A stretch of DNA of 61,802 nt, filler included, from Catajapyx aquilonaris (GCA_000934665.2; 2 parts of 2 records of this genome joined end to end with filler, not necessarily neighbours in it); one strand, 5' to 3'; shown: positions 32,236 through 61,802, numbered from the whole stretch's first letter. Notes: generated by a model from the letters alone, not told the origin. Numbers and translations: made by a program.

Positions 32236-32529
32236 GCCAATTAACGGAATATAACAGACTAAGACTTGCCGGACCTTTGCAGTTTCCGATTCACTCATTC
32301 TAAGAGGCATCCAAAGGTCCCGGACCAAGTCTGGGCTACATCCGAATATGTACATCGGGTTCAAGAGGATAACCAAACAGATCTCCAATGTCAAGTCTCA
32401 GACCATGCTGCCAGTGGTCGGGGGGGGGGGGGGNNNNNNNNNNNNNNNNNNNNNNNNNNNNNNNNNNNNNNNNNNNNNNNNNNNNNNNNNNATTCATTCA
32501 ACCTTGATTCACCTTAACAAAAAGTGGTG

Positions 32530-34222: not shown

Positions 34223-35404
34223 TTCTTCTTCTTCTTCTTCTTGTTACGTTTTTTTTATTCGCCCTAACTCAAGTTCTGCTGTAGGTAGAGCTTCCAAATT
34301 TTGAACACAGATCCCCACCGTCGTGACTTTATTTCCTACCATTTACACTTTTACTTAACTCCTCTTCAAAACGCCGCAAAAAATTTAAAACAACCAAAAA
34401 ATACGTTTTAATTTTTTTGCTCAATAACTATTCGGAATTTGGTTTCTTCGTCAAAGGGCCGAAAGTGCAGTGGGATGGTGCGGATCTATGTTCAAAATCT
34501 CACAGTTCCCACTGCTACAGGATTGGAGCTGTGATTTCTTTACCTCGTATTTTTTGTGTCATTACTTCATTTGTTCGTTACGCCATCACCTAGAAACGTC
34601 AGTTGTTGTTTACCACCTCACATATTGTTGTGGGTCAAAGGAGGACAAGATGAGCGACGCCGAGTCGTACTGTCGCCATTGGGTTTTCACCCAACTTTAA
34701 TGTGCCTTTGTGTTTTTTGTATCGTCTGGTACAGTTCTCAATGTACATACTCCGTATATTTTAGCGTATAGGCTTTTCATAATAATTAAATCAGACTAAC
34801 CTTTGGCTGGTAGCACTCGACTTTCGTTTTTTTACGACTGTCTCTGTGAAAATAATTTTAGGGACTTCTAAGCGACGAAAATCGTCTCCATTGCATTCAT
34901 AGTGCAGACTGTATAGTGTAGACACTGTAGAGCATAAGTTATGTGTACTGTCAAAAAAGAACTGAAATTATATCAAAAACTTTCCCTTCAGTAAAAAAAA
35001 GAGAAGTAAGACCTCCGCGGCGGAATGAAGGTACTGAAACAAGGCAGGCGCACGTATGACCTTCACCAATTGCTTTAAGCTGTACAGTACCATAGGTCTT
35101 ACTCAAGCAATTCTCAAGTACGGTACGGAACGGCTCGTAAAAATTACTGCTGCAAACTACTCAGAGCAGTATAGGTAGGGTTTTATTTTGAAAAGAAAAA
35201 AATTGGGGAAAAAGACTAAACCCATTCTAACAGACTTGGTCCAATCGAAAAAGACCCTCTAAAATTCACCAATTAACCATTATATGTGAAAAATTAAACG
35301 TTAGAGTTAAAATCAGCATCTAAAAGGGGTGCGCCGATTCTGCATGAATGTTTCATGGCAATAATTCGCACTAATCGCATAGAAATTCAATGCGCTTAAT
35401 ATTG

Positions 35405-37577
35405 AAGTGGGAATGTCCTATGGTGGTGAGTCACGACGTGGGAAAGTCTCTTCCTGCAAGTGTCCAGACGCTTCTGGCCAACATATCCAGGGTGGGGAGA
35501 CCCGTGCTCATCTCCAGATCAGAATCGAAAAGGACCTGGACCTGCGATGATTCAATTGAAAGAGGAGAATATTATGAGAGAATGGATTTGGATTCCACAT
35601 CAAAACAAGCCAAGTGCGCATTACACGTGGTTATGACCTGTGCCGATAATTATGGGGATATCATGGATGTGCATTTGGATCCAGACGAGGCCCTCACTGG
35701 GTCAAAAACCACTCGCGACCCGTTCGTCTTTTGGATCAGAGATTCGGATGACAGCAAATTCCTCTCTGAAAAACCTGCATCGAACATCAGGTTCAAGGTG
35801 TCCCTCACTCCAGCAGATGACGACAGCATTCAGGTCAATTCTGTTTGCCTTTTCTGCAATGGACCTACCTTCGAACACGTCATGTTCAATGCCACCACAA
35901 ATGTTACATTGAACAGAGAGCTGTTTCGCGACACATCAAACGACTTCAGAGGTTCTACACTTGAAAGAGTTCATTACGATGAACTGGACAACACTATGTG
36001 CGGGCCTTTTTTTCAGTTCAGTGACTTTTGTTTTGTAGCAGACGCCCTGAACTTTAGATGGCATGCAATGGCCATCGACGGGACTGAAGCCGCGCAAAAT
36101 CTGACCTACTTGCTGCAGCTCATTGATGATTTCACGAAGCCACGAAGGGAAAGCTTTCCTTTATGCTATCCTCCCCGATAGTTGAAATTTTGTTTCCTTT
36201 GGTTCACTTTGTGCCGAAAAACAGTGTCCAACGTATAACCTTTCTCGGCAGGACTCCTCGCGAATTGCAAACTCCGCTCATCATAGTGTATGCCTATGAC
36301 ACGTTATGTTGGTGTGCCATAAGGGAGACGGAGTGGCGCCGCGGTAACGTGCGCGCCCACGGATGTTAAGGTCCCGGGTTCGATCCCAGCCCGGGGACAC
36401 CCCCTTCATCTCGTGCAGAGTTCAGGGTCACCTCTGGTCTCGGGTGGTATTTCCTACAGACTAAACCACCCGGGGGAGTTCACTAAAAATGACCACAGCG
36501 TCAGATTCACTGCACTTTGCACATCCCCTCCTGTCATCCTGCCCGTGGGCCCGGGCGCTTCGTTCAAGGCTCCAAATGTACGAATTGAAAATAAAGGTCC
36601 GTGCAAAACACCTTCTCGGTGAGCACTACCCCCACAATTATTACATTATATTATTATTATATATTATGTTGGTGTGCCTTTGGCGTAGGGTTTTTTGTGT
36701 CTGGTTTGTTCCTGTGCGCATTTGCAAAGTTGCAAACTGATGTTTTAAGTGCACGTTCTCTATTCCGTTCAGCATGGTATCGATACACCTTGAGATACCT
36801 TGGACTCTCTTAGGACAATTCTCCGACAACCTTTCTACGAGGCATCTTCTTCAAAGGCGTTTGTATCGACGTGGACGTTTTTTGTTATCATCGTTACAAC
36901 CGGATACACGAGCAAACTTTATTACTTTATCACTTTCCCTCCAAAAGAGATAGTTCCCTCAAATTTCCAAGAATTGATGAATTCTAATGTAAGTTTAATG
37001 TCCTGATAGGGGCTTTTCTTTACGATCTTATTATGCAGGATTTGACTGATGATATGCGGCAGAAATACAAACCATTGTTCGATAAATGTACTAAAATAAT
37101 ACCACTCGTGGAAGAATGCGTAAATGACTTTATGCTCTATGACAGAGTGTGCCTGGGCGCCGAGGATGACTTGAACCTTTGAAAGACATGTCTGACATAA
37201 TTGACGTGTACGGGCAGGGCAACACGTTCATATCCACAGACACTTTCGCCTTAGCCCATAACGCAGTTCTTCTTACCAGAGACAGAGTGTATCAGGATAA
37301 CATTGATTACTGGATGGGAATATATCACAGCACTGGTATTTCGACGAGGATAACCGCATTCCATTATCACATGCAGATGCTGAGAAAGTTTAAGAGGAGG
37401 CGAGAGGATGGGATAGTGGACGAGGACAATGTGGCCATCACTTTGGAAAGCCTCGGGGGAGCTTTCTATGTTATTGTCGCTGGTAGTGTCCTCTCTTCCG
37501 CTGCATTCGTGACTGAAATATTAGTTAAAAAGTTCATGGTACGCAATAAAAGCCGGCCTTATCCATTTTTAAAGTAA
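35405..37577 (+). pseudogene. Divergent ionotropic receptor pseudogene (5'-truncated, frameshifts, SINE insertion)
   Basis: ORF pieces 35390-36181, 36800-37006 and 37179-37577 align with the intact paralog at 42715-44664 (ECPMVVSHDVGKSLPASVQ; TGYTSKLY; ITLESLGGAF). Confidence 0.85.
36319..36663 (+). mobile_element. tRNA-derived SINE with 15 bp TSD
   Basis: A/B boxes, (TTA)-rich tail, TSD TTATGTTGGTGTGCC at 36304-36318 and 36664-36678. Confidence 0.9.
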
Positions 37578-41699: not shown

Positions 41700-42714
41700 G
41701 TGACATCCAGATTACGTCTACTGATGCCTAAGCTAAACGAGACTATGAGGGTTTGAATAGAAATCGAATGTATAAAAAATTGTCACCCCCTTTTTGGATG
41801 TCACTTCCGGGAGTCACACCCAGAAAAGTGGATGTTCATACTATGATGTTCAACTACACCCAGACAAGATACAGGTCTACAGATGTTTCGTAGTTGGCAT
41901 TGCTCCATATTGGAATTTTCCCATGTTACCCTATTCCAGGCTCCAAATTAATGCTAATGGTTGAGGGGGGGGGGGGTTATTTTATTTTATGAGATTTCTG
42001 ATATACAGAATGCAATTTTGACGGATAATGAGGCATAAACATTTTTAAAGCCATGTACTAATACGATTGGATTTCACTAAAAACTGTAAAGTGNGCAATT
42101 TTGACGGATAATGAGGCATAAACATTTTTAAAGCCATGTACTAATACGATTGGATTTCACTAAAAACTGTAAAGTGCTATAAACTTACTTCTACTTACAA
42201 TAAAATTATGATGCATGTTTTACATAGTTCCGACGTTCAATTAACCCCACGATTATTCCGTGATATTGCATGCTGCTGGAATAGCCCCGTAATTTCGACA
42301 TCTGTTGAGGAAATGTTTAAATATTGTTATCGGCTATTTTCTTTTTAACATACATCAGCCATACAAAAAGGAATGCTTACCTGCCAAAGTTATTAGAAAC
42401 TTGCTTATGAATATCGGCACATAATCCCTACAGCCCTACAGGACATAAAATAACACCAAAGGTCATCCCATGCAATAAGCAAGGAGGAAAATACGTGAGC
42501 TTGTGTACAAGGTTGCTAAGTATTGACAAGTTCAATTACAAGTCTGTACATCGATATCGACATTTTCACTGTGGCAACGTATGAAATGCGTGAATTCAAA
42601 AGCACTTCTGTCTTATTTCATATATGATGCATGTTTCCGCACTCATAACGAGTTGGCGTGTCGGACTGTCGGAAAGCAGTCTGGACATTAGAGCAGTGCC
42701 AAGTCGACATAGCA

Positions 42715-44664
42715 ATGGGTATGCGTACAATTATGAAGATTCATATTAGTACTTGGCTAGTATTTCTCGCATTCAGAGTGACATCTGCCAGCGTTTCTAT
42801 GACAGACCAGACGGTGAACGGACATGTCGAGTCTCAGTTCGTGTGGAGAGCATTCAACAATGAGAGAGTTGTGGAGCTGGAATGTCCTTTGGTGGTGAGT
42901 CACGACGTGGGAAAATCTCTTCCTGCAAGTGTCCAGACGCTTCTGGCCAACATGTCCAGAGTGGGGAGACCAGTGGTCATCTCCAGATCAGAATCAAAAA
43001 GCACCTGGACCTGCGATGACTCAGTAGATGAAGGAGAAGTATATGGGGGGATGGATGTGGAATCTGCATCGAAGCAAGCCAAGTGCTCAGTACACCTGGT
43101 CATAACGTGTGCAGACAACTACGAGGATGTCATGGAGGCGCATTTGGATCCAGATGTGGCCCTGATAGGGGCAAAAACCACTCGCGACCCCTTCGTCTTT
43201 TGGATCAGGGATTGGGATGGCAACGAATTCCTGGCTGAAAAACCTGCATCCAACATCAAGTTGAAGGTGTCCCTCACTGCTGGAGATGACAATAGTATTC
43301 AGGTCAATTCAGTATGCCTTTTCTGCGATGGACCTACCTTCGACCATGTCATGTTCAATGTGACCACAAATGTTACATTGGACAAATATCTGTTTCGAAA
43401 CACAGCAAACGATCTGGGTGGTGTGAAACTTGAAGGATTGTATCTCCGTGAAATGGACGACACTATGTGCGATCCATATTTTCATTTCGCTGACATTTGT
43501 TTTATTGCCGAAGCCCTGAACTTCAAGTGGCATGTCAGCATCATCGACGTAGCTCAACTTATTAAAAATATGAGCCACGCTGCTCTGGTGTTGGAAGATT
43601 ACAGGCAAGGGAAACTCTCATTTTCGCCAATAAGTCCGTTGGTAGAGATTGTATACTCCTTATTTCACGTCGCACCCAAACACCTTCCGTTTCGTGTGTC
43701 TTTTCTCGCCAGGACCCCACGAGATTTGCAAACTCCGCTAATAATAGTGTATCCCTATGACACGTTATGTTGGTGTGCGTTTGCCATCGGCTTTTTTCTG
43801 TCTGGCTTGTTCCTTTGTACCTTCGCAAAGTTGCAGTTTAAAGTGATAGGATCACAGTCTCCTTTTCGCTCAGCATTGTATACCTCGAAATATCTTGCAC
43901 GCCATATCATTGCACAAATCTCCAACGACCTTTCTCGCGAGTTGTCGTCTTCAAGGGCATTTGTATCGATGTGGATATTTTTTGTACTAATTATAATGAC
44001 CGGATACGTGAGCAAGCTATATAGCTTCATAGCTTTCCCTCCGACGGAGGAGGTCCCAGCCAATATCCAGGAACTGGAGGATTCCAAGTTTGATATATAC
44101 ATAGAGGAATATATTTATGAAAACCTTATGCAGGATGTGACCTGGCGACAGCATTACAAACCACTGATCAAAAAATTAATTCAAGTACACGCGATATCTG
44201 GTTGTGTTCCTAACTTTATGCTCTATGACAGAGTCTGCCTGGGAGTTGACTTTATGTTGCAGAACATATCTCACGACATCGACGTGTACGGCAGGGGCAA
44301 CACGTTCATATCCACCGACAGTTTCGCCTCACTGAACTACGCTGCTCTTCTTGCCAAAGGCAAAGTCTACCAGGACGACTTCGATTACTGGATGGAAATA
44401 TATCACAGCTCGGGTCTTGAGACGATGAAAACCCCATTTATAAATCACCTGCATATGCTGCAGAAGTTTAGGAAGAGGCGAGAGGATGGCGTAGCTCTAG
44501 TGGAGGAAGGCACTGTGGCCATCACTTTGGAAAGCGTCGGGGGGCCTTTCTGGATTCTAGTCTTTGGTAGCGCAGCTTCTCTCGCTGCTTTTGTCAAAGA
44601 AACTCTAGTTCAAAATTTACTGTCTCGCTACACCAACAGCCTGCATTATCCGTATTTAAATTGA
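42715..44664 (+). CDS. Divergent ionotropic receptor (IR, iGluR-related chemoreceptor), intronless
   Basis: Signal-peptide-like N-terminus. TM-like segments IVYPYDTLCWCAF, SRAFVSMWIFFVLIIMTGYVSKLYSFIAFP..EVPANIQEL and ITLESVGGPFWILVFG..SLAAFVKE match the IR architecture. Confidence 0.8.
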   Translation: MGMRTIMKIHISTWLVFLAFRVTSASVSMTDQTVNGHVESQFVWRAFNNERVVELECPLVVSHDVGKSLPASVQTLLANMSRVGRPVVISRSESKSTWTCDDSVDEGEVYGGMDVESASKQAKCSVHLVITCADNYEDVMEAHLDPDVALIGAKTTRDPFVFWIRDWDGNEFLAEKPASNIKLKVSLTAGDDNSIQVNSVCLFCDGPTFDHVMFNVTTNVTLDKYLFRNTANDLGGVKLEGLYLREMDDTMCDPYFHFADICFIAEALNFKWHVSIIDVAQLIKNMSHAALVLEDYRQGKLSFSPISPLVEIVYSLFHVAPKHLPFRVSFLARTPRDLQTPLIIVYPYDTLCWCAFAIGFFLSGLFLCTFAKLQFKVIGSQSPFRSALYTSKYLARHIIAQISNDLSRELSSSRAFVSMWIFFVLIIMTGYVSKLYSFIAFPPTEEVPANIQELEDSKFDIYIEEYIYENLMQDVTWRQHYKPLIKKLIQVHAISGCVPNFMLYDRVCLGVDFMLQNISHDIDVYGRGNTFISTDSFASLNYAALLAKGKVYQDDFDYWMEIYHSSGLETMKTPFINHLHMLQKFRKRREDGVALVEEGTVAITLESVGGPFWILVFGSAASLAAFVKETLVQNLLSRYTNSLHYPYLN

Positions 44665-48301: not shown

Positions 48302-48852
48302 TTTATGAAAACGTTATGCAGGATGTGACCTTGCGACAGCATTACAAACCACTGATAAAAAAATTAATTCAAGTACACGCTTCATCTGGTTGTGCTCCTA
48401 ACTTTATGCTCTATGACAGAGTCTGCCTGGGAGCTGACTATATCTTGCAGAACATATCTCACGACATCGACGTGTACGGCCGGGACAACACATTCATATC
48501 CACCGACAGTTTCGCCTCACTGCACTACGCTGCTCTTCTTGCCAAAGGCAAAGTCTACCAGGACAACTTCGATTACTGGATGGGAATATATCACAGCTCG
48601 GGTCTTGAGACGAAGAAAACCCCATTTATAAATCACCTGCATATGATGCAGAAGTTTAGGAAGAGGCGAGAGGATGGCGTAGCTCTAGTGGAGGAAGGCA
48701 CTGTGGCCATCACTTTGGAAATCGTCGGGGGTGCTTTCTGGACTCTAGTCTTTGGTAGCGCAGCTTCTCTCGCTGCTTTTGTCAAAGAAACTTTAGTTCA
48801 AAATTTACTGTCTCGCTACACCAACAGCCTGCCTTATCCGTATTTAAATTGA
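48302..48852 (+). pseudogene. 3' fragment of a third ionotropic receptor copy
   Basis: Near-identical to 44115-44664; homology extends into the 3' flank to about 48937. The 5' part is replaced by transposon-like DNA with GGGGCACAGTGGACC repeats (about 47515-48170). Confidence 0.85.
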
Positions 48853-49215: not shown

Positions 49216-50183
49216 AGTAGTATGAAAAATCGGAGTCCCATGCCAGGAGGGTGGTAAGATCTTTGAGGGGTATGCAACCCGCAATACATGTCAGGTCCTT
49301 GAAGGGTATGCACCCCGCAATACATGTGCAGATCCCCCAGGGGTATGCAACCATGCGATGGGTTGCGGGTTGCCTACCCCTCAAAGATCTGACCACCCTC
49401 CTGGCATGGGACTCCGTTTTTGGTCACCCTGATATAGTAGACCGGAGTCCTATGCCAGCAGGGTTACCACCATTGTTGTGAAGCAGTGTTGCCAATAGAT
49501 GCTAATAACGGCTATTAAAAATAGCATATAGCGGATAGCAGTCTTAATAGCTATTTTCTTAATAGCTATTTTGAGTGCATCCGAATGGCTAATAGCTATT
49601 TCGGGTGCGTTCGGATGGCTGTGCAAGGGGGTATGATTAAAAGCTATTTTGAGTGTATCCGAATGGCTAATAGCTATTTCGGGTGCATTCGGGTGGCTGT
49701 GCAAGGTTACTCCAGATTAATATTATTGTATAGTTAGAGTCTACAGCTTTATTTTGAACATTGTTGCCAGATGTAAATATTCTGATTTTACGTTCGAGTC
49801 CACAGCTTTATTTTGAGCATTGTTGCCAGATGTAAATATTCTGATTTTTAGTTATAATAGCTATTTTGAACATGTTTTACATAAGATGAATTCGGGCAGA
49901 TAAGGTAAGTACGTGTTGGGTTGCCAGATTTAATGTTAGGTTAATAACATCGTAATTAAACAATATATTGGCCTCCTCCAGTGCCAGGGGCTCATCACGG
50001 ATCGAGAGGTAGTAATCCCACACATGTACAGCGCACAGAGGAATATTGCTGAGTATGCTTGCATGCCATGGCAAGCAAGAGAGCTGGACTCTGACCGGGA
50101 AGGATGGCCGCCAGTTGTTTATGCTTTTTTTAATGCATTGGTGGCAGAGGGCGAAATAATAGAATAATGTTATAAGGCTTGTG
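49216..50183 (+). repeat. Left terminal inverted repeat of the Maverick
   Basis: Matches 61319-61802 in reverse complement; contains repeated AATAGCTATT palindromes and a subterminal hairpin. Confidence 0.8.
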
Positions 50184-50825
50184 ACCAGCGCCTTATTATA
50201 AAGGTTGCGGAAGGCTGTAAGCACATAATATTATGAATTACTAGAGTGGAAATGATGGTGTCATATAATCCATTAGGTATTGGTATTTTATGAATGTTGC
50301 GGAAGGCTAAATTTTTTTAAATGCATTGGTGGCAGACGGCGAAATAATAGAATAATGTTATAAGGCTTGTGACCAGCGCCTTATTATAAAGGTTGCGGAA
50401 GGCTGTAAGCACATCATATTATGAATTACTAGAGTGGAAATGATGGTTTCATATATTCCATTAGGTATGGGTATTTTATGAATGTTGCGGAAGGCTATAA
50501 AAATAATACTGTAGTTGAGGTTTAAAAATTCATTTATTACATCACGGCATAATCAGCTTTGCTCGATGAGACTGTGTACGTCACTGAAGCAGGCAAAAAA
50601 AAAGTCTAGTCGCGTCTAGATAATATCCGGTTTCTTTTTTCTTTCTCTTGCTTATTCAGTGTAAGCTAATGTGTGCCAACTTACAAGGTAAAGATAATAA
50701 TGGGAAGTCATTTATTATTCGGTTTTTTTAAATAATATAGATGGCTATAGAAGCATGTAAAATAATAGTTTTTTAAAAATAATATAAATTCATGAACATA
50801 ACACCTTCTCAATTACCATCTCATC

Positions 50826-50878
<53 letters not shown>

Positions 50879-51289
50879 GCTAAGGCTTGCTTTTATGCCA
50901 ACGCCTTATTATGAAGGTTGCGGAAGGCTGTAAAATAATACTGTAAATAATATTAATAATAACAATATCAAGAACAATAATAAAAAATTATTTTTATTCG
51001 TTCATAAGAAAGGAATAATGCGGCCTTTGTTCGAATAGCTACAACATCATCAAAGAGAAGGAGCCAGCTTGAGCATTTTGCGCGCAAGCAGGCTGCAGCA
51101 AAGTCCAACCACGTCTAGCCAATATCCTGTTTATTTTAAACCTCATTTTTCCAGGAAACAAAATAGGTTCTTTATTTTGAATGATGCGGAAGACTATAAA
51201 GATGAACGACGGGTAATAATAATGACAATATAAAGGAAACTCTTATCAAATTATAATGTTATTCCAATCTAACATTGATAGAAGACAGA

Positions 51290-52723
51290 ATGAGTAACAA
51301 TTCCTCATCCTCATCACATCGAAAGTGGATTACTTTTGACTCATTAAAGAACGAAACTACTCGCTTGCACACCTTTAAGCGATGGCCTGTATCGTTTCTG
51401 ACGCCTGAAGAGTTGGCCAGTGCAGGGTTTTTCTTCCTACAGAAGAAAGATTATGTCGAATGTGCTTTTTGTCGCGGCGTTGTTGGAGAGTGGCAAGAAG
51501 GGGATAAAGCAATCACAGAGCATAAAAAACACTTTGGATGGTGTCCATTTGTGAATGAACTACCTGTGGGAAACACCATGAGAGGTGAGGAGGAAGAGGA
51601 GGAGGAGGAGGAGGAACTAGAACTAAATGTATCACATCTTGGAAGGGGGTATGACACCTGCCAACGTGTTGTTACTGAAAGAAGACCAAATTCTGCACCT
51701 GAGCGAGGTGAGTAATGAGTCATGCTCATGTCGAAGAATATTCATTAAGTTACTTTCTCTTCACAGCAAAAAGCATGAATGGGAACATAAAATTGAGGGA
51801 AGGAGCCCACATTAAGTCCCTTGGACTGATTCGCATAGGGCATCAAGGTCCTCGCTTTCCAGAATTCATCGCTCTAGAAGTCAGATTGTCATCGTTCAAG
51901 GAATGGCCTTCAGAGATGAAACAAACCCCAGAGGAAACGGCATCTGCTGGATTTTATTATACAGGGCTATCAGATCATGTTAAGTGTTTCTCATGTTCCG
52001 GAGGTTTACGTAATTTTGACGAAGATGATGACCCATGGAAGGAACATGCGTACTGGTTCTTCCGTTGCGCATACGTGACACACGTCAAGGGAATATAGTA
52101 TATAAAATCAGTCCGACTGTCCGAGGCGAAGCAGGAATACAGAATATTGTGAAAAAACCCATAACGCTAGAAAGGTGTATGCAATCAGCTATGGTGAGGA
52201 GGGTTATGGAGATGGGATTTGAGGGTCGGTTGACTCGGCAAGTTATTCAAAAGCGCTTAGAAGAACGAGGAAGAATGTTTGGAAGCTTGGACAGTTTAGC
52301 TGAAGCATTGATGGATGAAGAGGACCGGTTAGAGAGAGAGTCAATGGGATCTCATGAGGTTAATGGCATTACGTAGGTGTCTACTTATTCATCACCACTC
52401 TTTATCGGATTTTTTTCCTGTAACTATATGATTTTTTTTACAGGCTTCAGAATGCTATGTCCACCTGTCCTCCTCCTCCTACAAAATTGGATCCACTAGA
52501 GCCACCCTCTTACAATGAGCATGTCGAGAGTATATGTCCCATCGAAAGCAATGACTTCATTGCAAAAAACATCCTCAACGCTTGCAACGTGTGCTTCAAT
52601 GAGGAGATGAATATAGCAATAATGCCATGTGGTCATATTTGTGGGGAGCGATGCTCATCATTGTTATCTACATGCCACATATGTCGCGCTCGCATTGAAG
52701 CAACCTTCAACATCTACATGTAG
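51290..52723 (+). pseudogene. iap: Inhibitor of apoptosis (BIR-BIR-UBA-RING), 3 exons, with premature stop and frameshift
   Basis: BIR1 RLHTFKRWP...CAFC...EHKKHFGWCPFV, BIR2 RLSSFKEWP...CFSC...EHAYWFFRCAYV, UBA-like VMEMGF, RING CNVC...PCGH...CHICR. Introns 51708-51766 and 52373-52443 keep phase. TAG at 52096-52098 and a frame change precede the UBA. Confidence 0.88.
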
Positions 52724-52857
52724 TCTGAGTCCCTATAACGAAACATCATGCGACTCAACCATCGTCAATGTCGGTCCGTCAATAGTGAACGTCGACTCGA
52801 CGAACATCATGTCGTTCATTGAGATTGACCAATTGACTATGATGTTATTTCACTCAT

Positions 52858-53255
52858 TAAAAGTCGTTTAAAATAACATCATGGTCGTAAGGTCGACGTA
52901 ACGTTCGACATTGACGTGGGGACGAACGACATGTCGCTCGATGGCTCGTGTAGACCGATCGTCATGTCGATGATTTAACGTTAAATTATCGTTAAAAGTC
53001 GTTAAAAATAACGTCCTGGTTGTATGATTTCGTTAAAATAAGGTCCTGGTCGTAAGGTCGACGTAACGTTCGACATTGACGTAGGGACGAACGACATGTC
53101 GCTCGATGGTTCGTGAAGGCCGTTCGTCATGACGACGATGTAACGTTAAATTATCGTTAAAGTCGTTTAAAATAACATCATGGTCGTATGGTCGACGCAA
53201 CGTTTGTCATTGACGTGGGGATGAACGGCATGTCGCTCGATGGCTCGTGAAGGTT
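52858..53255. repeat. CpG-rich tandem array, three copies (165 and 134 bp spacing)
   Basis: GGTCGTAAGGTCGACGTAACGTTCGACATTGACGT-like units at 52883, 53048 and 53182. Confidence 0.9.
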
Positions 53256-53407
53256 GATGGTCTACAAATTTTATACCTGAAATTTATGTACCTTAGGGAA
53301 ATAAAACTTTAAGTGAAACATTTTATTTCATTTCTAGTCATTTTATTTTTTACATGTCCCGAAGCATTGATGGTTCAACTAATATTCATTATACTGATAC
53401 GTTGAGA

Positions 53408-54061
53408 TTAGAGCGTCTCCTTATCAAAGCATTTCCTATATTTTCCATGGCGGGTACGGGTTTTATCAATGGTGAGAAACCCAAATGGTTTATGCCAACT
53501 TTTCAAGCACATTCTTTTAAATTCATCAAAACTGTCTAAGTCATTCGTACAATGATCCCGAAATATCATATTTAAATTACGATCACACTGAGGGAAAGCA
53601 ATAATCAAATTAGCATTATCTCTGATTAAGGCTGCAGGTATTTTGTTATATGTTTGAGCTAAATATACACAGTTTATATTTTTGTGACGTCCATGTGTGA
53701 ATATATCTTGAATTATGCGTTGCTTGTGAAGCATTACATCATCAAAAATAACAAGATGCGACATGCATGGGTCCAGCTCTCCTAACACACTTTCGTCTTG
53801 AGTAAAAATCAATCGGCTCTCTTCTCCGACTCTTGCAAAGGCCTCTCGCAGTTTTCGGTACATGGACTGATCAGCTGTAGAAGTAAAAATGATTAAACTA
53901 TCATAATCGATGTAACCAGGAATCAGGATTAAGTTGACGATCAAATTGGTTTTCCCACAGTTGCTAGGACCAACAATAATGCCTCGAATACTTTGAGGCA
54001 ATATTTTATGGTGCTTTTGCGTTTTCTGTTTGACAACGCCCATCATATTAAAGACTTCCAT
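53408..54061 (-). CDS. A32/FtsK-like DNA packaging ATPase
   Basis: Walker A GPSNCGKT, Walker B LVIFDD, and GRHKNINCVYLAQ...IP...IRDN. Confidence 0.92.
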   Translation of the reverse strand: MEVFNMMGVVKQKTQKHHKILPQSIRGIIVGPSNCGKTNLIVNLILIPGYIDYDSLIIFTSTADQSMYRKLREAFARVGEESRLIFTQDESVLGELDPCMSHLVIFDDVMLHKQRIIQDIFTHGRHKNINCVYLAQTYNKIPAALIRDNANLIIAFPQCDRNLNMIFRDHCTNDLDSFDEFKRMCLKSWHKPFGFLTIDKTRTRHGKYRKCFDKETL

Positions 54062-54098
54062 TCGAAAAAAATGCTGTTATGTGAACCGATGCTGACCT

Positions 54099-54916
54099 TT
54101 ATATATCTTCGTTCATATTTTCATCCCAGGAAAACCCCTGCGGATGCCAATTAGGATCATCATCATCAGGTGCCATCCACTTTCCTTTGGGAGTTTCTGC
54201 TGTTGGATCGAAGACAATCTCCCCTTCCTCCTCTTCTTCCAGGATAGGTGTTACTGACTCTCCTACAGGATCTGTTACCGTATCCATATGTTTATTTCCC
54301 GGAACGAACCATTCGAAAGAGTCCGGAGTGCCAACCTCATCGTCTGTTTCATAACATTCCTCAGCATCGGAAGTCACTTTCTTTGCATTAATCCAGTTGC
54401 TAATCATCATGACTTTTTTCATGCTACACTCATGATGGAGATAGCATTGCATCAAGGCATCAGAATAGTATTCCTTTAGAGAAATATAGTTAGGACATCC
54501 TAGAGTTTCCAGATTAACAACTTCACGCTGCAAGTAACTGGAAAACATATGACATTGTTCTGCACCTGAAATGAACGATAAAAAATGACATATATACGGT
54601 ATTTCATATTTTCATATATCTCACCTTTGGCGTAAATAGTTTTATAGTTCATTGTAGCGGCCGTTAGACACTTGCAAGTGTATTTATGGGGTATGCATCC
54701 AGCGGAGAAAGGAATACCGGTCAAATAATTCCTTATGTATAAATTTTCATCCATAATATTACTAGGCCAATGCTCCTTAGGCGAGTGAAACAGGAAGTGA
54801 TTCAATTCTGGAGTCTCAGCTCCATTCGCAACTGCTAGTGTTGTCACTTCCTTCGGAAATAGATGTCCCTCAGCATCCTTGTAGCAATTGGAAGCGATTA
54901 TTACACCTGGCTCCAT
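54099..54916 (-). CDS. Polinton DEDD-exonuclease-like protein, 2 exons
   Basis: A GT-AG intron at 54624-54566 joins TIYAKG-AEQCHMFSSYLQREVVNLETLGCP in frame. Motifs FPKE, HFLF and NLETLGCP; the expected first acidic motif appears absent. Confidence 0.65.
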
Positions 54917-54977
54917 TCTGTCGAGTGAGAAATAAATCGGAAAATTCGCGACTTTATATAAATGCAATTTACACACC

Positions 54978-56240
54978 ATGATCGTGTTAAATATGCGCGC
55001 GCATGCATCCGGGTCGGGTAATCTGCTTAACAAACTTATCGATAAGTTACCGCTGGAATTGCACATTCCAGGTTACCGTTTCTGCGGACCTGGAACACGA
55101 TTAGAAAAGAGATTGCAAAGTGGAGATGTTGGGATTAATGATTTGGACGAAGCCTGTCGGGAACATGACATTGCTTATGCCAGAGGCGATGATAAGGGGG
55201 AGGCGGATAAAATATTAGCAGAAAAGGCCTGGCGCTTGGTTAAGAGAAGCGATGTATACCTGAAACAGAAGGTGGCTGCAGTGGCCGTAGCTGCTGCAAT
55301 GAGGCTAAAGCGACTTATCGAGGGCCGTGGGGTCATGGCTAGGATAGCAGAAGAAGTCCATCGTTCGGCCAGGCATAATTTTTCTAGGCGTCATGTGATA
55401 ACCAAGGGCCCGAATGATTTGTGGCAGGCTGACCTGGTCGAGATGATACCTTACTCACGATCTAATAAGGGATATAAATATATTCTAATGATAATAGACA
55501 CCTTTACGAAATACGCATGGGCAGTGGCATTGAAGAAAAAGACCGGTGCGGAAGTAACTGCTGGTATCAAGAGGGTTGTGGGGAAAATGTATAAACCTGC
55601 ACACTTACAGACCGACAAGGGAAAGGAATTTTTTAATCGAGAATTTTCCAAGCTGATGCGAGAGCTGAACATTAATCATTATGCCACCAATTCTGACCTG
55701 AAGGCGTCGATTGTTGAGAGATTGAACCGAACAATAAAGAATCGCATGTATAGACGGTTCACCGCTCTCGGTCATTACCGTTGGGTTGATTTATTGCCAA
55801 GTATAATGAAAAACTATAATCAAAGTTATCATCGTACTATAGGCACAACACCTGATAAAGCATATGAATGCGTAGAGAGTGTGGGGAAAAAAATAGCTTC
55901 CTCTCTTAGAGTCCAACTGAAGAAACCTAAATATAAAGTGGGGGATCTAGTACGTGTGTCAAAAATTAGGGGAAAATTTCACAAAGGCTATTTGCCGAAT
56001 TGGAGTCATGAATTATTTCGGATTGAAACGGTGAGACGTAAATCAACGGATCCTGTTACATACACATTGCGTGGGGTGGACGGCTCATTTTATGAGCAGG
56101 AACTCCTGAGAACAAGCATTCCAGACGTGTATTTAGTTGAAAAAGTGCTCAGAAGAAAGGGGGATAAACTTTTTGTTAAATGGAAAGGATTTAGTTCCAC
56201 GTACAACAGCTGGATATCAAAGAGTGACGTAGAGGTATAA
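54978..56240 (+). CDS. Parvovirus-type phospholipase A2 fused to rve integrase and chromodomain
   Basis: PGYRFCGPG...LDEACREHDIAY (PLA2); WQADL, QTDKGKEF, IVERLNRT (DDE triad); YLVEKVLRRKGDKLFVKWKGF...NSWI (chromodomain). One uninterrupted ORF. Confidence 0.92.
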   Translation: MIVLNMRAHASGSGNLLNKLIDKLPLELHIPGYRFCGPGTRLEKRLQSGDVGINDLDEACREHDIAYARGDDKGEADKILAEKAWRLVKRSDVYLKQKVAAVAVAAAMRLKRLIEGRGVMARIAEEVHRSARHNFSRRHVITKGPNDLWQADLVEMIPYSRSNKGYKYILMIIDTFTKYAWAVALKKKTGAEVTAGIKRVVGKMYKPAHLQTDKGKEFFNREFSKLMRELNINHYATNSDLKASIVERLNRTIKNRMYRRFTALGHYRWVDLLPSIMKNYNQSYHRTIGTTPDKAYECVESVGKKIASSLRVQLKKPKYKVGDLVRVSKIRGKFHKGYLPNWSHELFRIETVRRKSTDPVTYTLRGVDGSFYEQELLRTSIPDVYLVEKVLRRKGDKLFVKWKGFSSTYNSWISKSDVEV

Positions 56241-56293
56241 ATAGGGGGTACATATTCCTGACCTTGGTCACATATTCCTGACATTGGTCACAC

Positions 56294-57349
56294 ATGGATC
56301 AGATTCGCAAGTACGCTAAAGCAGATCAGCTGGAAGAATTAGTGCGACTAAAATTTCGGGAGAAGGGTGAGCGCAAAGCTAAAGGCGATGAACAATTAGG
56401 TGATTTTTTTAACCCGTTGACCAAAAAATTAGACGAGCAGCAGCAGCAGCTACTGAAAAGAGAGGAGGTGTCGTACATTGACTTGGAGCCACAGTACGAA
56501 TCTCCCATGATGTACGAATCTCCCATGATAAAAGAAGAGCGAGTCTCTATTAAACAAGCTTCCCCAAGTAGCAAGCGTAGGAGACTTTCATGGCAACCTA
56601 CTCCTACTCATAACACTTCTTTAGAGCAATATATTACTATCCCCCCTACTCTGAATATTGATCATATTCTCACTTCTATGGATCCTATTCCCACCACTAG
56701 CACACACCCTTCTCCCACTGCGAGTAGTAGGTGTCCTTCTCCCTCCTCAAGCACTTCTAGTTTCAGTGTGCATTCTAAGCCTAAGCACATGTTGAGTGAA
56801 GCATTTAGGAGTCAGAATGACCCGGACATAGTATTTGGTGTGAGAGACGTAGAGGATGGGTACAAAATTGGCAGTGAACTTATAACGCTTCTACCAGATG
56901 GAAATTCTATTCAAATCAAGAAAAAGAGGTATGAATTAACACCAGGATTGGTTGAGCTTCTGATTGACCGTAATCCTCATATTTATACTAAGGAGGACTT
57001 TACTAATTATAGCGTCATTTTACACGATACCAATGCCATGAGGCAGGGAAATGATGCTGAAAATTCTAAACCAAAATCTAGCGTCAGCACGAAATGGAGC
57101 CAGTTAGTTAAACCCATATGGCAGGATATGAAATCGGTAACAGGAGAAGGTGTGAAAACTCTTCGAGAAGTTGATTTCTTGCCTTATAAAAGTCCGGATG
57201 ATCTACTTTATCGTTTGCGGGATATTTTAGCTTCACGCAATGCGGGCAACACCTCTCATTTCAACGAGGCCATCTCAATAGCGGAGGAACTACAAAAAAA
57301 TAATTACATAACCTCACATCAGTTCATCATTTTACGTAAAATTATTTGA
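56294..57349 (+). CDS. Conserved Polinton protein of unknown function
   Basis: 351 aa ORF between integrase and capsid genes, with YELTPGLVELL and a C-terminal LLYRLRDILASRNAGNTSH.NE pattern I associate with arthropod Polinton ORFs. Confidence 0.65.
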   Translation: MDQIRKYAKADQLEELVRLKFREKGERKAKGDEQLGDFFNPLTKKLDEQQQQLLKREEVSYIDLEPQYESPMMYESPMIKEERVSIKQASPSSKRRRLSWQPTPTHNTSLEQYITIPPTLNIDHILTSMDPIPTTSTHPSPTASSRCPSPSSSTSSFSVHSKPKHMLSEAFRSQNDPDIVFGVRDVEDGYKIGSELITLLPDGNSIQIKKKRYELTPGLVELLIDRNPHIYTKEDFTNYSVILHDTNAMRQGNDAENSKPKSSVSTKWSQLVKPIWQDMKSVTGEGVKTLREVDFLPYKSPDDLLYRLRDILASRNAGNTSHFNEAISIAEELQKNNYITSHQFIILRKII

Positions 57350-57422
57350 TTTATTGTGGAAGCATATAATTATATGGTATATATTATATATGCACATAAA
57401 GAATGATACTATTATCATTACA

Positions 57423-58130
57423 ATGTTTTTGGAGATTAGTGGCAGGTGTCCGTTAATTAAGGCTTCGTTCTCTCCACCCATACCTTTACATGGAAAATAT
57501 GAATTAGCGTTACTTGGGTTCAATACTCTTTATTCTTCCCCAAATATCGATAACTCGAATTGTGAGTTACAATATTCCAAAGACAATAGAAACCCTGAAA
57601 CAATTAAGTTCCCCTACGGTCACTGGGAAGCGAAGGAAATTGCGGATTACATTAACAAAAAATTACCCGAAATATATATTTCCATAAATGATAACACTGG
57701 ACGGACAGAAATAACATCAAGTAATTCTCGTAAACTTGTTCTATTTTTTTCCGAGCCTAATTCGATTGGAAAAGTGTTGGGTTTCCGTGACAACGTATCC
57801 ATAAACCAGGAATCGCCTCTGGTAGTAAGCAAATATCTCATTAATATCACCAAGGTCTCTTCGTTTCAATTTCACTGTAATATTGTGAGTCAGGGGTATG
57901 TCAATGGGAAGGAAACAAACTTGTTATATTCATATTATCCCGATGTTGCACCCCACTATTCAATAGTCAAGGAAATTGTCAACCCCATTTACCTACCGTT
58001 ATCAGCCTCATTTATTGACGAGATTTACATAAATTTAACTGATCAGGAGGGTCAAAATCTATATAATAGTAGGGATGTGATCACATTTCGCATTCACATT
58101 CAACCTGTGAAACGAGATGTTGTCACGTAA
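57423..58130 (+). CDS. Minor capsid (penton-like) protein
   Basis: FSPPIPLHGKYELALLGF...CNIV..GYVNG...IYLPL...I.INLTDQEG, directly upstream of the major capsid gene. Likely start is MFLEISG at 57423. Confidence 0.8.
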   Translation: MFLEISGRCPLIKASFSPPIPLHGKYELALLGFNTLYSSPNIDNSNCELQYSKDNRNPETIKFPYGHWEAKEIADYINKKLPEIYISINDNTGRTEITSSNSRKLVLFFSEPNSIGKVLGFRDNVSINQESPLVVSKYLINITKVSSFQFHCNIVSQGYVNGKETNLLYSYYPDVAPHYSIVKEIVNPIYLPLSASFIDEIYINLTDQEGQNLYNSRDVITFRIHIQPVKRDVVT

Positions 58131-59406
58131 AGCTCAAAATGTCCTGCATGGATTAATTTCATCACCACTTGGCGATGGGGAGGGAGACGGAGACGTATTT
58201 AAAAGAAGAGAATTAATCGAGTATCAACCAGACACTTCCGATTCAAATTTTCCTAATACTGACATTGTACACCGTTTACCACGACTTGATAGCTACGTAG
58301 ACCTATCAAATTCGTATTATTACTTTAGGGGATCCATTGTGAAAAATGTTGAAGGTGTAGACGTTAGGTTAGACCCAGCTGACAAGATTCATCCTGTAAA
58401 CAACTTTATTTTGTATCATTTCGATAGATTTTCTTGTACTGTGAATGGGTCAGAGGTGGCCTACTTACAGAATTTGGGTCGTGCTTCGACTCTCAAATAC
58501 ATATCATGCTTGCATGAGAAAAATTTGGATATGGAGGGATGGAACCTTTCTGTGAATAGGACCTCCGACTCCCGCATAAGCCCAGACGGTCAATTCTCTT
58601 ACATTATTCCTCTAAAACGTTTTTCTGGATTTTTCGAGGATTTAAACCAGATATTTTACGGACCTTCCATGAAATGCGTTTTGAGTCGAAACGATTTGGT
58701 GCGAGATACGTTACATGTGTATGAAGGTGATGCTGAAGATACTCATAATGCTTACAGGATAAATTTCGAGCAGATTTCATTATTCATTCCTCACCTAGAG
58801 CCGACTCTGGCCACTCACACTAAGTACCTGTCTCTCCTACAACAGGAGGTTCCTTTGGAATTAAAATATAGGGATTTCAGGTGTGGAACTCTTCCATTGA
58901 CTAAGGGAGAAAGCGTGTTTTCGTTCAACGTACCTATTAGCGGTTTGATGGTAAATGTACCGCGGTATGTGGTCATTGGATTCCAAACTGGAAGAGAAAA
59001 TGAATTGAAAAAAGAAACCTCTGAATTTGATCATATATTTCTCCGAGATATAAGTTTATTGTTGAATAATCAACGCTTTCCAGGTAAAGATTTGAATCTG
59101 AACTGGGAACGAATGGAATGTCAGAAATTATACTTTATGTTAATGAAGTTTAAAGACTCTTACTATGGAAGGGAGCTCGAAACGCAGGTGAGCCTCGACG
59201 AATTTAAGAAAAAATGTCCCATAGTAGCATTTGATTGTAGTCATCAGAATAGTGAGCTAACCACTTCTAGTTCCAATATGACACTGGACATACGGTTGAG
59301 CAAGCCCTTAGTAGCTGCTACTCGAATGTATTACCTTTTGATATATGGGAGAACATTTCACATGACTTTTGGGGCGTCCCAAATGATGGAGGTCACAATA
59401 CTATAA
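58117..59406 (+). CDS. Double-jelly-roll major capsid protein
   Basis: 429 aa, beta-rich, with IPLKRFSGFFED, PRYVVIGFQT.R, FDH..LRDI.L.LN.QRFP and PIVAFDCS.Q patterns typical of Polinton MCPs. Confidence 0.85.
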   Translation: MLSRKAQNVLHGLISSPLGDGEGDGDVFKRRELIEYQPDTSDSNFPNTDIVHRLPRLDSYVDLSNSYYYFRGSIVKNVEGVDVRLDPADKIHPVNNFILYHFDRFSCTVNGSEVAYLQNLGRASTLKYISCLHEKNLDMEGWNLSVNRTSDSRISPDGQFSYIIPLKRFSGFFEDLNQIFYGPSMKCVLSRNDLVRDTLHVYEGDAEDTHNAYRINFEQISLFIPHLEPTLATHTKYLSLLQQEVPLELKYRDFRCGTLPLTKGESVFSFNVPISGLMVNVPRYVVIGFQTGRENELKKETSEFDHIFLRDISLLLNNQRFPGKDLNLNWERMECQKLYFMLMKFKDSYYGRELETQVSLDEFKKKCPIVAFDCSHQNSELTTSSSNMTLDIRLSKPLVAATRMYYLLIYGRTFHMTFGASQMMEVTIL

Positions 59407-59439
59407 ATTTCATACGCAATTTACTCATCACTGTCAATT

Positions 59440-59721
59440 ATGCCTAAGAGAAAGAATGCGAAGGTTGTGCGAAAGTCTACATCTCTAAAAAAAAAAGGCG
59501 GATTCCTTCCTCTTCTGATACCCGCCATAGGAGCCCTCGTTTCCGCAATCACAGGAGTGACCAGCGTGGCGTTAAATGCGAAGGCCAATCAGAGAAGATT
59601 GCAGGCTATAGAAAAACAGACCGAAATACTGTCTCAGTTGCGGAAGGGTCAGGGTCTACGCCTAAAACCTTATCCCAAGAAAGGCTCTGGTACGAAGAAA
59701 AAAAAGAGATTAGTCCGCTAA
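59440..59721 (+). CDS. Small basic virion core/membrane-active precursor (adenovirus pX/pVII-like)
   Basis: K/R-rich, with KKGG|FLPLLIPAIGALVSAITG hydrophobic segment and further GxG sites. Confidence 0.7.
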   Translation: MPKRKNAKVVRKSTSLKKKGGFLPLLIPAIGALVSAITGVTSVALNAKANQRRLQAIEKQTEILSQLRKGQGLRLKPYPKKGSGTKKKKRLVR

Positions 59722-60134
59722 CAAATGAAGACATTATATATTTGGCTAGATGGTTACAAGTTAAAGGATTTAAGGGTGTATTTATGCGGGACGAACTCAA
59801 GGGTCGCGTTTCCCAGCAAGAATGTGCCATTGTTAATCTAGATAATAGCAGAGGTGATGGAACACATTGGGTGACCTATTGGAAAAATGGGGAAGATATA
59901 TTTTATTTTGATAGTATAGGTGATATAAAGCCTCCCAACGAGGTGATCAAACATCTTGGACCCAATATAATATATAATACCAGTCGATTGCAAAATCCAG
60001 AAGACGGCGAACCGTCTTGCGGACACCTTTGTCTGATTATCCTCTCGGATTTGAGCCAAGGTCACATCTACGAGGATATTTTACATAGATATGAATCGGT
60101 TTGGAAAGTGTTGCTCCCATCGAGAAGTGAATAG
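59700..60134 (+). CDS. Adenain-like cysteine protease
   Basis: GTHWV, YFDSIG, RLQ and CGHLC catalytic motifs. The frame is open upstream through SPLTNEDI with no ATG before 59784. Confidence 0.88.
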   Translation, partial: KKEISPLTNEDIIYLARWLQVKGFKGVFMRDELKGRVSQQECAIVNLDNSRGDGTHWVTYWKNGEDIFYFDSIGDIKPPNEVIKHLGPNIIYNTSRLQNPEDGEPSCGHLCLIILSDLSQGHIYEDILHRYESVWKVLLPSRSE

Positions 60135-60609
60135 GATGGGGTTGATGAGCCAGTTTGGAGTGGGTATGAATTTTGTGGAGTTTCGGGGGAAGCGATTGAA
60201 TAATGTTGCAGCCCCGGAAGGAGATACGGATTGTGTGACCCTGGGACATCTCAAATCAGTGGCACTACTTAATGAAGAAGATACATATTACAATGCTGGA
60301 GGGAAACGCATAGGTCAAGTGCAAGCCCCAGAAAATGATGCCGACGTGGTCACGCTATCGCACATGCATAGGCTATGTCTAACTATGAATAAACATCACT
60401 ATGCAGCTAATAAACGAAAAATTATTCAATTAGGACCACCAAAGGAGTCCGAAGATGCTGTAAATAAGGATTACGTCGATTCATTAATTCGTACTATGCT
60501 CGAATTAATGATGAATATTGTTAATGAAGAAAAGGATGTAAAAAATCAGATATATAAATTGTTGCACGACCCCCCTATCCATGATGATAATATTCTTATG
60601 AACGAATAA
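60091..60609 (+). CDS. Fibre-like repeat protein
   Basis: Three repeats KRLNNVAAP..DTDCVT, KRIGQVQAP..DADVVT and RKIIQLGPP...EDAVNKDYV; AATAAA overlaps the stop. Confidence 0.6.
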   Translation: MNRFGKCCSHREVNRMGLMSQFGVGMNFVEFRGKRLNNVAAPEGDTDCVTLGHLKSVALLNEEDTYYNAGGKRIGQVQAPENDADVVTLSHMHRLCLTMNKHHYAANKRKIIQLGPPKESEDAVNKDYVDSLIRTMLELMMNIVNEEKDVKNQIYKLLHDPPIHDDNILMNE

Positions 60610-61318
60610 AAATAATTATTTTTATTATAGTTGTTGATGTTGTTATTATTATTTATAGTATTATTTTACAGCCTTCCGCAACCTTAACAGGATATTGGCT
60701 AGACGTGGTTGGACTTTGCTGCAGCCTGCTTGCGCGCAAAATGTTCAAGCGGGCTCCTTCTCCTTGATGATGACGTAGCTATTCGAACAAAGTCGGCATT
60801 ATTCCTCATGTGCTGCACTCAAAAATATAAATCTTAATTATTATTTACAGTATTATTTTACAGCCTTCCGCAACCTGCATAATAATTATTTTTTTACGGA
60901 CTTCCGCAACGAATAGCTACATCTGGCATCAATGTTCAAAATAAAGATCTAGACTGTAACTATACGATATGGTGACATAAATCGGGGTCCCATGCATGGA
61001 GGGTGGTCAAATTTTTGAGGGGTAGGCAACCTGCAACCCATCGCATGATTGCATACCCCTGGGGGATCTGCACATGTATTGCGGGGTGTATACCCTTCAA
61101 GGACCTGACATGGACATGTTATTAATAATAACCCCTTGCATAGCCGTCTGAACGCACCCAAAATAGCTATTAGCCATGTAAAACATGTCCAAAATAGCTA
61201 TTTTATATCAACTAAAAATCAGAATAGTTACATCTAGCAACAATGCTCAATTTTTCCATGCTTCAACATCCATCATAAATAATAATAATTATTATTATTA
61301 ATAAACCTGTACTCGCCT

Positions 61319-61802
61319 TCACAAGCCTTATAACATTATTCTATTATTTCGCCCTCTGCCACCAATGCATTAAAAAAAAAACATCAATAACTGGCGGCCA
61401 TCCTTCTCGGTCAGAGTCCAGCTCTCTTTTCCTGCGATGGCATGAAAGCTTACTCAGCATTATTCCTCTGTGCGCTGTACATGTGTGGGATTACTACCTC
61501 TCGATCCGTGATGAGCCCCTGGCACTTGAGGAGGCCAATATATTGTTTAATTACGATGTTATTAACCTAACATTAAATCTGGCAACCCAACACGTACTTA
61601 CCTTATCTGCCCGAATTCATCTTATGTAAAACATGTTCAAAATAGCTATTATAACTCAAATTCTGAATATTTACATCTGGCAACAATGCTCAAAATAAAG
61701 CTGTGGACTCTAACTATACAATAATATTAATCTGGAGTAACCTTGCACAGCCACCCGAATGCACCCAAAATAGCTATTAGCCATTCGAATGCGCCCAAAA
61801 TA
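61319..61802 (-). repeat. Right terminal inverted repeat (partial, cut by window edge)
   Basis: Reverse complement of about 49646-50183. Confidence 0.85.

Follow-up and report, generated by a model that had tools for sequence, protein, structure and literature searches.

Overlapping protein-X-like and protease reading frames in a Polinton element

The window, the whole stretch of DNA analysed here, comprises 61.8 kb (61,802 nucleotides, filler included) from Catajapyx aquilonaris (GCA_000934665.2), in two parts joined end to end. All coordinates given without a locus name are window positions and refer to the plus strand unless stated otherwise. The last 12.5 kb of the window (49287-61802) are occupied by a Polinton/Maverick (adintovirus-like) element with long inverted repeats at both ends, and within this element two open reading frames (ORFs) overlap. 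The zero-frame ORF (59440..59721, ATG to TAA) encodes a protein-X-like product of 93 amino acids (aa). The second frame (59448..60134), which is -1 relative to the first, has 228 open codons, ends at a stop at 60132-60134, and encodes an adenain-like cysteine protease domain (59709..60134; 141 aa as analysed). An original prediction, made from the sequence of the window, had described this pair of frames and proposed that the protease is made by -1 frameshifting; translation confirmed both the ORF and the -1 frame open from 59448.

The protein-X-like ORF consists of a basic N-terminus, a hydrophobic segment (GG/FLPLLIP), a GQGLRLKPY motif and a lysine-rich tail. It passes the gathering score of the Pfam family PF05829 Adeno_PX (E 1.8e-8; score 34.6 bits, threshold 25), with residues 11-48 aligned to profile positions 1-40 of 42. 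Our own hidden Markov model (HMM) of X-type proteins also matches it (E 2e-28), a score that is partly circular because the ORF is itself one of the nine seeds of that model. The proposed shift site is a run of eight A (A8, 59698..59705), read in the X phase as AAG AAA AAA AAG. It holds an in-phase heptamer, A_AAA_AAG, at 59700-59706, four codons ahead of the X stop codon TAA (59719..59721), which closes the interval where a shift must happen. A run of ten A (A10, 59487..59496) lies near the 5' end of the ORF and contains an in-phase A_AAA_AAA at a point where the -1 frame is already open. The heptamer and the second run were both found as originally predicted. Two of the 12 plus-strand runs of at least eight A in the window fall inside this 282-nucleotide (nt) ORF, which exceeds chance.

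The lengths of these runs were checked against Logan contigs of four DNA runs (X1-X4), which come from one sample and are possibly the window's own source data. Contigs of X1 and X2 span 59081/59085-60649 and those of X3 and X4 span 59457-60649, covering both A runs with 0 gaps; the length of A10 is reproduced in the X1 and X2 contigs. In the contigs of these four runs no indels were found between 58900 and 60618, and no variant contigs at 90% likeness or more were seen between 59416 and 60459. Run length at both homopolymers was homogeneous, so the homopolymer-length check suggested with the original prediction yielded no A-run length variant in read-derived contigs. Because contigs of four DNA runs reproduce the A-run lengths without a gap, an assembly slip in the window does not account for them. 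Elsewhere in the window, N runs abut long C or G homopolymers at 17895-17949 and 32419-32473 and mark assembly gaps; some homopolymers are therefore a problem for this assembly, the A runs of the X ORF not among them. That X and protease truly form one in-frame ORF, split by a homopolymer sequencing or assembly error, is extremely unlikely. Homopolymers are error-prone and in-frame fusions exist elsewhere, but four read sets agree on the run lengths, and the same -1 offset occurs in 49 of 63 clusters of related loci from many assemblies, including sites of only six A or seven T.

No ATG is present in the protease frame between 59448 and 59783, and the first one lies at 59784..59786, again as predicted. 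It encodes the methionine of a conserved GVFMRDEL motif, which is residue 26 of the modelled protein and the end of a strand at 21-26. The protease N-terminus, PLTNEDI...FKGVF, had been called conserved-looking, and an alignment of 47 sequences (A1) bears this out: the consensus PLSNxDI...NFKGVFMRDEL shows conservation upstream of the first ATG. In the same alignment H53, D68, Q95 and C104 are invariant; by analogy we take them to be the catalytic set (His, Asp/Glu and Cys, with an oxyanion Gln). The AlphaFold model of the protease has a mean predicted local distance difference test score (pLDDT) of 92.1, and residues 1-25, containing a helix at 6-15 and most of the strand at 21-26, form a block with pLDDT 93-98. 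The protease would thus appear to need residues upstream of 59784, which are conserved and are folded in the model.

The top Foldseek match of the model was the adenovirus 2 proteinase (1nln_A, E 2.3e-7, TMq 0.66), and adenovirus proteinases made up five of the first seven matches. The protein has both the adenain-type fold and the His/Asp/Gln/Cys set that characterize MEROPS family C5 of clan CE. It scored below the gathering threshold of Pfam Peptidase_C5 (E 0.083, 13 bits against 21.3), and no Pfam family was found for the product of the whole -1 frame. The window protease is a short, divergent relative of the Peptidase_C5 proteins.

The -1 frame is stop-free across the X ORF, a state seen in 87 of 20000 synonymous resamplings and in 30 of 20000 codon permutations. 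The resulting overlap (59448-59721, 274 nt) is the longest of 51 related overlaps, whose median is 43 nt, and neither the long stop-free overlap nor the A10 run of the window was shared by the relatives. Together, the stop-free -1 frame and the in-phase A10 leave room for a second, upstream shift site or for dual coding.

Frame layout in related loci

A scan of viral contigs with the single window protease returned no locus, so that the loci obtained include no close DNA relative from this lineage. A total of 84 related DNA loci was assembled, four from IMG/VR and 80 from metagenomes, the metagenome scan being made with a closer alignment (A2). The closest DNA locus (L005, 55%) is truncated where the protease begins. 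Clustering at 90% nucleotide identity gave 69 clusters, six of which are cut by a contig end, leaving 63 that are decidable. As judged by the X-type HMM, an X-type ORF lies just upstream of the protease in 60 of 85 sources, the window included. Among the upstream ORFs missed by this model, four of seven tested carry a phospholipase A2 (PLA2)-like domain with the same GxGL(Y/F)LxPY tail. In relatives (L001, L002, L010, L023, L045, L049 and L070) the PLA2 domain is part of the X-type gene that precedes the protease, whereas that of the window is on the integrase ORF.

Where both an X match and a protease anchor were available (59 sources), the protease frame was -1 relative to X in 51, +1 in six and in-frame in two. 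Counted by cluster, 49 of 63 have a -1 relation with an in-phase X_XXY_YYZ heptamer; 37 of these are without an ATG upstream of the conserved motif and 12 have one. The start-less -1 layout is therefore found in 37 of the 63 clusters, from about 39 different record-name prefixes. Two further clusters are -1 without a heptamer, one of them (L033) being a truncated twin of L081, which has one. A +1 relation was found in seven clusters, a single in-frame ORF in one (L002), and no long overlapping upstream ORF in four. Conservation of the -1 overlap in related Polintons, which the original prediction had put forward as its test, is strongly supportive.

At five of the +1 loci (L024, L037, L039, L057 and L078) the length of the A run differs from that of the nearest -1 relatives (compared with L023, L031 and L067). 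Such loci could be defunct copies or could result from assembly slips in a homopolymer; they might also point to polymerase stuttering.

Slip sites and downstream structure

Three types of slip site were distinguished in the relatives: A_AAA_AAC; U_UUU_UUA/G, which is written into the codons of a conserved G-L-F-L motif; and runs of 7-11 A, the class to which the window belongs. Motifs whose phase is unique were in phase in every case (12/12 for [not-A]A6C and 20/20 for [not-T]T7[A/G], 32/32 in all). An in-phase heptamer was present in 50 of 51 cluster-representative overlaps, compared with three of 47 control windows of equal length further up the same ORFs. The shortest overlap, at L053, is only 10 nt; here the sequence GGT AAA AAA AAA TAA is bracketed by stops in both frames. 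Loci with non-slippery G-L-F-L codons, such as L064, have A_AAA_AAC downstream instead, and in L081, which has a non-slippery and a slippery copy of G-L-F-L, the slippery one alone lies near the end of the overlap.

A zero-frame stop immediately follows A_AAA_AAC (AAC TAA/TAG/TGA) in nine clusters (L015, L031, L046, L060, L063, L064, L069, L076 and L082), and this tight arrangement may itself act as the stimulator in the A_AAA_AAC class. In a clade with U_UUU_UUA and no hairpin (L006, L007, L008, L066 and L077), the open -1 interval begins with an ATG, a short way ahead of the heptamer; in this clade frameshifting may exist side by side with independent initiation.

One U_UUU_UUA clade of 13 loci has hairpins of 8-14 base pairs that start 5-12 nt past the heptamer, with stem sequences that vary by locus. 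Folding z-scores for 12 of these loci were -5.2, -5.2, -4.6, -3.2, -3.1, -2.6, -2.4, -1.9, -1.6, -1.3, -1.0 and -0.9, and the mean for control windows of the same loci was about +0.2. Covariation was counted on a crude alignment with a 14-pair structure given by hand from one row: 75.2% of cells were paired, against 35-45% with slid partners, double-change cells numbered 22, against 5-9, and none of 500 shuffles reached the observed score. RNAalifold, run on a plain MAFFT alignment in which three rows were misaligned, returned 8 pairs. A hairpin after U_UUU_UUA is a canonical -1 signal.

Folding, which did not extend to pseudoknots, gave no consistent hairpin in the other U-run clade, the A_AAA_AAC class or the A-run class. 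Nor was a stimulatory structure predicted by the same kind of search downstream of the window heptamer (59707-59800; minimum free energy -12.9 kcal/mol, z +0.40, with 130 of 200 shuffles folding as well or better), and a separate fold test of the 75 nt after the heptamer gave z +1.03.

These results bear on a different mechanism, in which RNA polymerase stutters on A8, and perhaps on A10, so that some transcripts have an altered run length and carry X and protease as one ORF. The window site is a pure A8 homopolymer in an ORF that also holds A10, no structure is predicted downstream of it, and its class of relatives has runs of 7-11 A. Mammalian polymerase II is said to restore frames at runs of about eight A, as Linton et al. 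reportedly described in 1997. The five +1 relatives with altered A-run lengths, moreover, would be tolerable to a stuttering polymerase and not to a -1 slip. However, the A6C and U7 classes, with their unique phase (32/32) and, in one clade, a covarying hairpin, bear the hallmarks of ribosomal shifting, and six A are short for stuttering. Because of this phase and this hairpin the family trait is ribosomal in at least the A6C and U7 clades. For the window, transcriptional slippage on A8 is a serious alternative, given the lack of predicted structure, a heptamer that is not among the top mammalian ones, and the five +1 relatives; we nevertheless regard it as unlikely.

Protein homologs and natural fusions

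A search of 1.84 billion representatives returned 2791 homologs of the protease at E<=1e-3, which take three forms. The first is a stand-alone protein with a methionine a few residues before the conserved PLSNxDI motif. The second, 41 of 255 predicted homologs, is called from the internal methionine of FMRDEL, which corresponds to window position 59784; these calls are a gene-caller artefact. In the third form, found in nine of the 255, an X-type segment and the protease are joined in one chain, and six of these nine are seeds of the X-type HMM. One such chain, P0118 (237 aa), matches both the window X (E 5e-10) and the window protease (E 2e-34), and has the architecture and size expected for the window's fusion. 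At the DNA level, L002 is a PLA2-X-protease ORF of 355 codons in one frame. The outcome that the original prediction had set against itself, homologs that form a single in-frame ORF, thus holds for some distant homologs and fails for most.

The two protein relatives closest to the window protease, P0002 (55%) and P0112 (45%), start with a methionine 8-11 residues ahead of the conserved motif, and their lineage may normally start the protease independently. In the window, independent translation would call for a spliced mRNA with an upstream AUG exon, a non-AUG start, or a start at AUG 59784 that gives a shortened enzyme. Adenovirus-like late genes are expressed from spliced mRNAs, and an ATT (59709) lies just ahead of SPLTNEDI as a candidate non-AUG start. 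The gene calls at the internal methionine might be cited in favour of the third variant, although they reflect the gene caller, and a start at 59784 would delete a conserved helix and strand modelled at pLDDT 93-98. Splicing would favour no one frame over another, yet the relation is -1 in 51 of 59 loci, and slip sites occur in overlaps as short as 10 nt that are bounded by stops in both frames. We consider independent translation very unlikely.

Proposed mechanism

Judged from sequence, the balance tips modestly towards a window protease that is made as an occasional X-protease fusion by -1 ribosomal frameshifting. This is the most likely route because the layout and the in-phase slip sites are conserved in relatives and natural in-frame fusions exist. 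The core of the original prediction, a transframe fusion made by a -1 shift with gag-pro logic, is likewise supported by the -1 relation at 51 of 59 loci, the in-phase heptamers in 50 of 51 overlaps and the natural one-chain fusions. In the proposed scheme, ribosomes would begin at AUG 59440 and most would end at UAA 59719, giving the 93-aa X precursor. A minority would slip -1 on A_AAA_AAG (59700-59706) and continue in the protease frame to 60134, giving an X-adenain fusion of about 230 aa. The X part would bring a few protease molecules into the assembling particle, where the protease would release itself and then process further precursors of the virion, in keeping with retroviral gag-pro logic. 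Adenain cleaves at the consensus (M/I/L)xGG-x and (M/I/L)xGx-G; inspection of the X tail by eye found no exact fit, either at KKGSG, the release site originally proposed, or at GG/FLP, so that either would be no more than a candidate cleavage site.

Several observations weigh against this reading. For the window copy alone the phase of the heptamer has no weight, because eight A always hold a heptamer in one of three registers, and no stimulatory structure was predicted behind it. The heptamer A_AAA_AAG is weak for animal ribosomes, and Brierley reportedly found in 1992 that AAG in the A site is poor in reticulocyte lysate. Among the relatives, seven of 63 clusters require +1 and 12 of 49 have an ATG in the protease frame, and the two closest protein relatives have a start of their own. 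The listed holders of the stretch 57300-60650 included no RNA run. The element also lacks an expected polymerase gene, and the copy may be old or inactive, as set out below. Finally, according to passages of a 2016 review, A_AAA_AAG is the optimum in E. coli and is absent from the heptamers named there as shifting most readily on mammalian ribosomes (PMC5009743).

At the level of the family, the comparison of sequences looks like a real, essentially undescribed case of gag-pro-type recoding in eukaryotic double-stranded DNA (dsDNA) virus-like elements. A bolder version, which we hold to be doubtful, is that X/PLA2-adenain recoding is old and family-wide, has yet to be described between these two genes, and has moved between three kinds of slip site (A_AAA_AAC, often right against a stop; U_UUU_UUA with a hairpin; and long A runs). 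In that version both frames would be coding over the whole window X ORF, and slippage at two sites (A10 at 59487, A8 at 59698) would give two protease fusions, one of them without the hydrophobic X segment and with an Arg/Ser-rich linker from the alternative frame.

The element and its surroundings

The element has the hallmark set of a Polinton/Maverick: terminal inverted repeats (TIRs), a double-jelly-roll (DJR) capsid protein, an A32-type ATPase, an rve integrase and the adenain-like protease. The left TIR arm lies at about 49.3-51.1 kb, and the right TIR (60600..61802, inverted repeats I1, I3, I6, I10, I14 and I16, no strand assigned) continues past the window end. The arms exceed 1 kb, contain internal repeats and are 79-100% complementary, the longest arm being 96% alike. 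Directly upstream of the X ORF is the gene for the DJR major capsid protein (58117..59406; Pfam DJR-like_dom, E 2.5e-42). Between the arms there are also an A32-type packaging ATPase on the minus strand (Pox_A32, E 2e-8) and a 420-aa ORF (54978-56240) that combines a parvovirus-type PLA2-like domain, an rve integrase core (E 5.6e-16) and a C-terminal chromodomain, the chromo match being under the Pfam cut-off (20.8 bits against 25.1). Two more ORFs between the arms, of 351 and 258 aa, have no Pfam match. An ORF of 172 aa with its own ATG (60091-60609, +1 frame) overlaps the 3' end of the protease by 44 nt and extends to the right TIR. Its match to the N-terminal domain of the T7 tail fibre is weak and misses the threshold (E 2.8e-4, 21 bits where 25.2 are required). 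Beside the left TIR is a passenger gene (51290-52376) that resembles those for inhibitors of apoptosis (IAP), with two BIR domains (E 3.6e-20 and E 7.5e-23) and a BIRC2/3-type UBA domain (E 3.8e-6). It is split over three ORF pieces in different frames and is either broken or intron-containing.

No ORF between the TIR arms was long enough for, or matched, the protein-primed family B DNA polymerase (PolB) in the ORF lists and the Pfam search. Since the 9.5-kb interior (51.1-60.6 kb) is fully occupied by other ORFs, the element appears to be a PolB-less derivative, unless its PolB gene sits outside the window. Given the missing PolB and the diverged TIR arms, the copy may be old or inactive.

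These features raise the prospect of decay: the element would be a non-autonomous copy in which the protease, once provided with its own start as in P0002 and P0112 or joined differently, is now untranslatable, and the A run would merely be part of the lysine-rich tail of X. The methionine just before the motif in the nearest predicted proteins, the missing PolB in a coding part filled by other ORFs, the BIR gene in pieces in three frames and the divergence of the TIR arms would all fit such a history. Yet both ORFs are intact, as are the domains they encode, and all invariant protease residues are kept. The -1 frame is stop-free for 228 codons, which is unexpected under drift, and the start-less -1 layout is the majority state of independent relatives (37/63 clusters). 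Decay therefore seems improbable to us, and rather more so than polymerase slippage; the occasional X-protease fusion by ribosomal frameshifting is still preferred for this copy.

A piece of the right TIR (60608-60668) has a summed word depth above 1000 in runs X1-X4, compared with 13-37 over the X and protease genes. This piece is a high-copy repeat in the genome, and the coding part of the element looks low-copy. Upstream of the element, three diverged copies or fragments of Lig_chan (ligand-gated ion channel) genes were observed at 35390-37534, 42658-44664 and 48302-48852, with pieces that are 72-95% identical.

Comparison with known systems

Programmed -1 frameshifting is characteristic of RNA viruses, retroelements and phages. 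If the present reading is true, a maturation protease is dosed by convergent use of the same stoichiometry trick, and it is explained why gene callers truncate or miss the protease (41/255 calls at the internal methionine). The layout would then allow adintovirus and Polinton genomes to be annotated by a simple rule and would supply natural cassettes of heptamer and hairpin for frameshift tests in invertebrate cells, and intact slip sites would be a possible marker of copies still under selection.

Full-text literature searches, from which supplements were outside coverage, found no X/PLA2X-adenain frameshift, only a Hexon/Penton remark in the excerpted text of a preprint by Buck and co-workers (PMC11071296). 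According to this text, KnotInFrame points to possible slippery sequences towards the 3' ends of certain adintovirus Penton ORFs. With this brief Penton and Hexon-Adenain hint, the idea of -1 shifting as a possible route to adenain has already been published. The text names Hexon or Penton as the partner, not X/PLA2X, and the passages concerned contain no counts, phase test, structure or conservation analysis. In the available text of the 2016 review (PMC5009743) the terms 'polinton' and 'adenovir' are absent, and the eukaryotic DNA-virus cases are herpesvirus special cases.

Adintoviruses are described in the text retrieved from Starrett et al. 2021 (PMC8502044) as carrying a virion gene like PLA2 plus protein X (PLA2X) and an Adenain gene. 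The upstream ORFs of the relatives are alike in carrying Phospholip_A2_4, an X segment or both. That text, in the part retrieved, is without mention of recoding between PLA2X and Adenain, and the window differs in having its PLA2-like domain on the integrase ORF.

The heptamer of the window is identical to that of E. coli dnaX, A_AAA_AAG, as given in portions of PMC1851650 and PMC5009743. The dnaX system differs in that it involves a single bacterial Lys tRNA and a shortened product, whereas the host here is an animal. The use of an A run as a recoding site is shared with potyvirus P3N-PIPO and with homopolymer slippage in bacterial IS elements; in potyviruses, however, the slippage is done by the viral RNA polymerase, as stated in the sections seen of PMC4552492.

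Adenovirus protein X (mu precursor, PF05829) and adenain (peptidase C5) are the counterparts of the two window products, in that the window ORF passes Adeno_PX and the downstream protein has the adenain fold with His/Asp/Gln/Cys. The adenovirus adenain cuts pX. The window protease is shorter (about 140 aa, compared with about 204) and scores below the Pfam C5 cut-off. To our knowledge, X and adenain are separate genes with their own AUGs in adenoviruses, and no frameshift is involved.

The closest parallel in logic is offered by retroviral gag-pro and gag-pol, and it has clear limits. The present element is a dsDNA virus-like transposon, its protease is of the adenain cysteine type (clan CE) where retroviruses have an aspartic protease, a virion protein of the protein-X/PLA2 type takes the upstream place of Gag, and the window's A_AAA_AAG lies in an A8 run behind which no structure is predicted. 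A_AAA_AAC is used by beta- and deltaretroviruses and U_UUU_UUA by HIV-1. In the consulted sections of the sources, A_AAA_AAC is a top mammalian slip site (PMC5009743) and a frameshift hairpin is described for HIV-1 (PMC2794165). The two systems are alike in that a structural gene overlaps briefly with a -1 frame behind it, which encodes a protease that has no start codon. Both of these retroviral heptamers, A_AAA_AAC and U_UUU_UUA, are found in the relatives too, and one clade has a hairpin a few bases downstream. The presumed outcome is also the same, namely few copies of the protease per particle.

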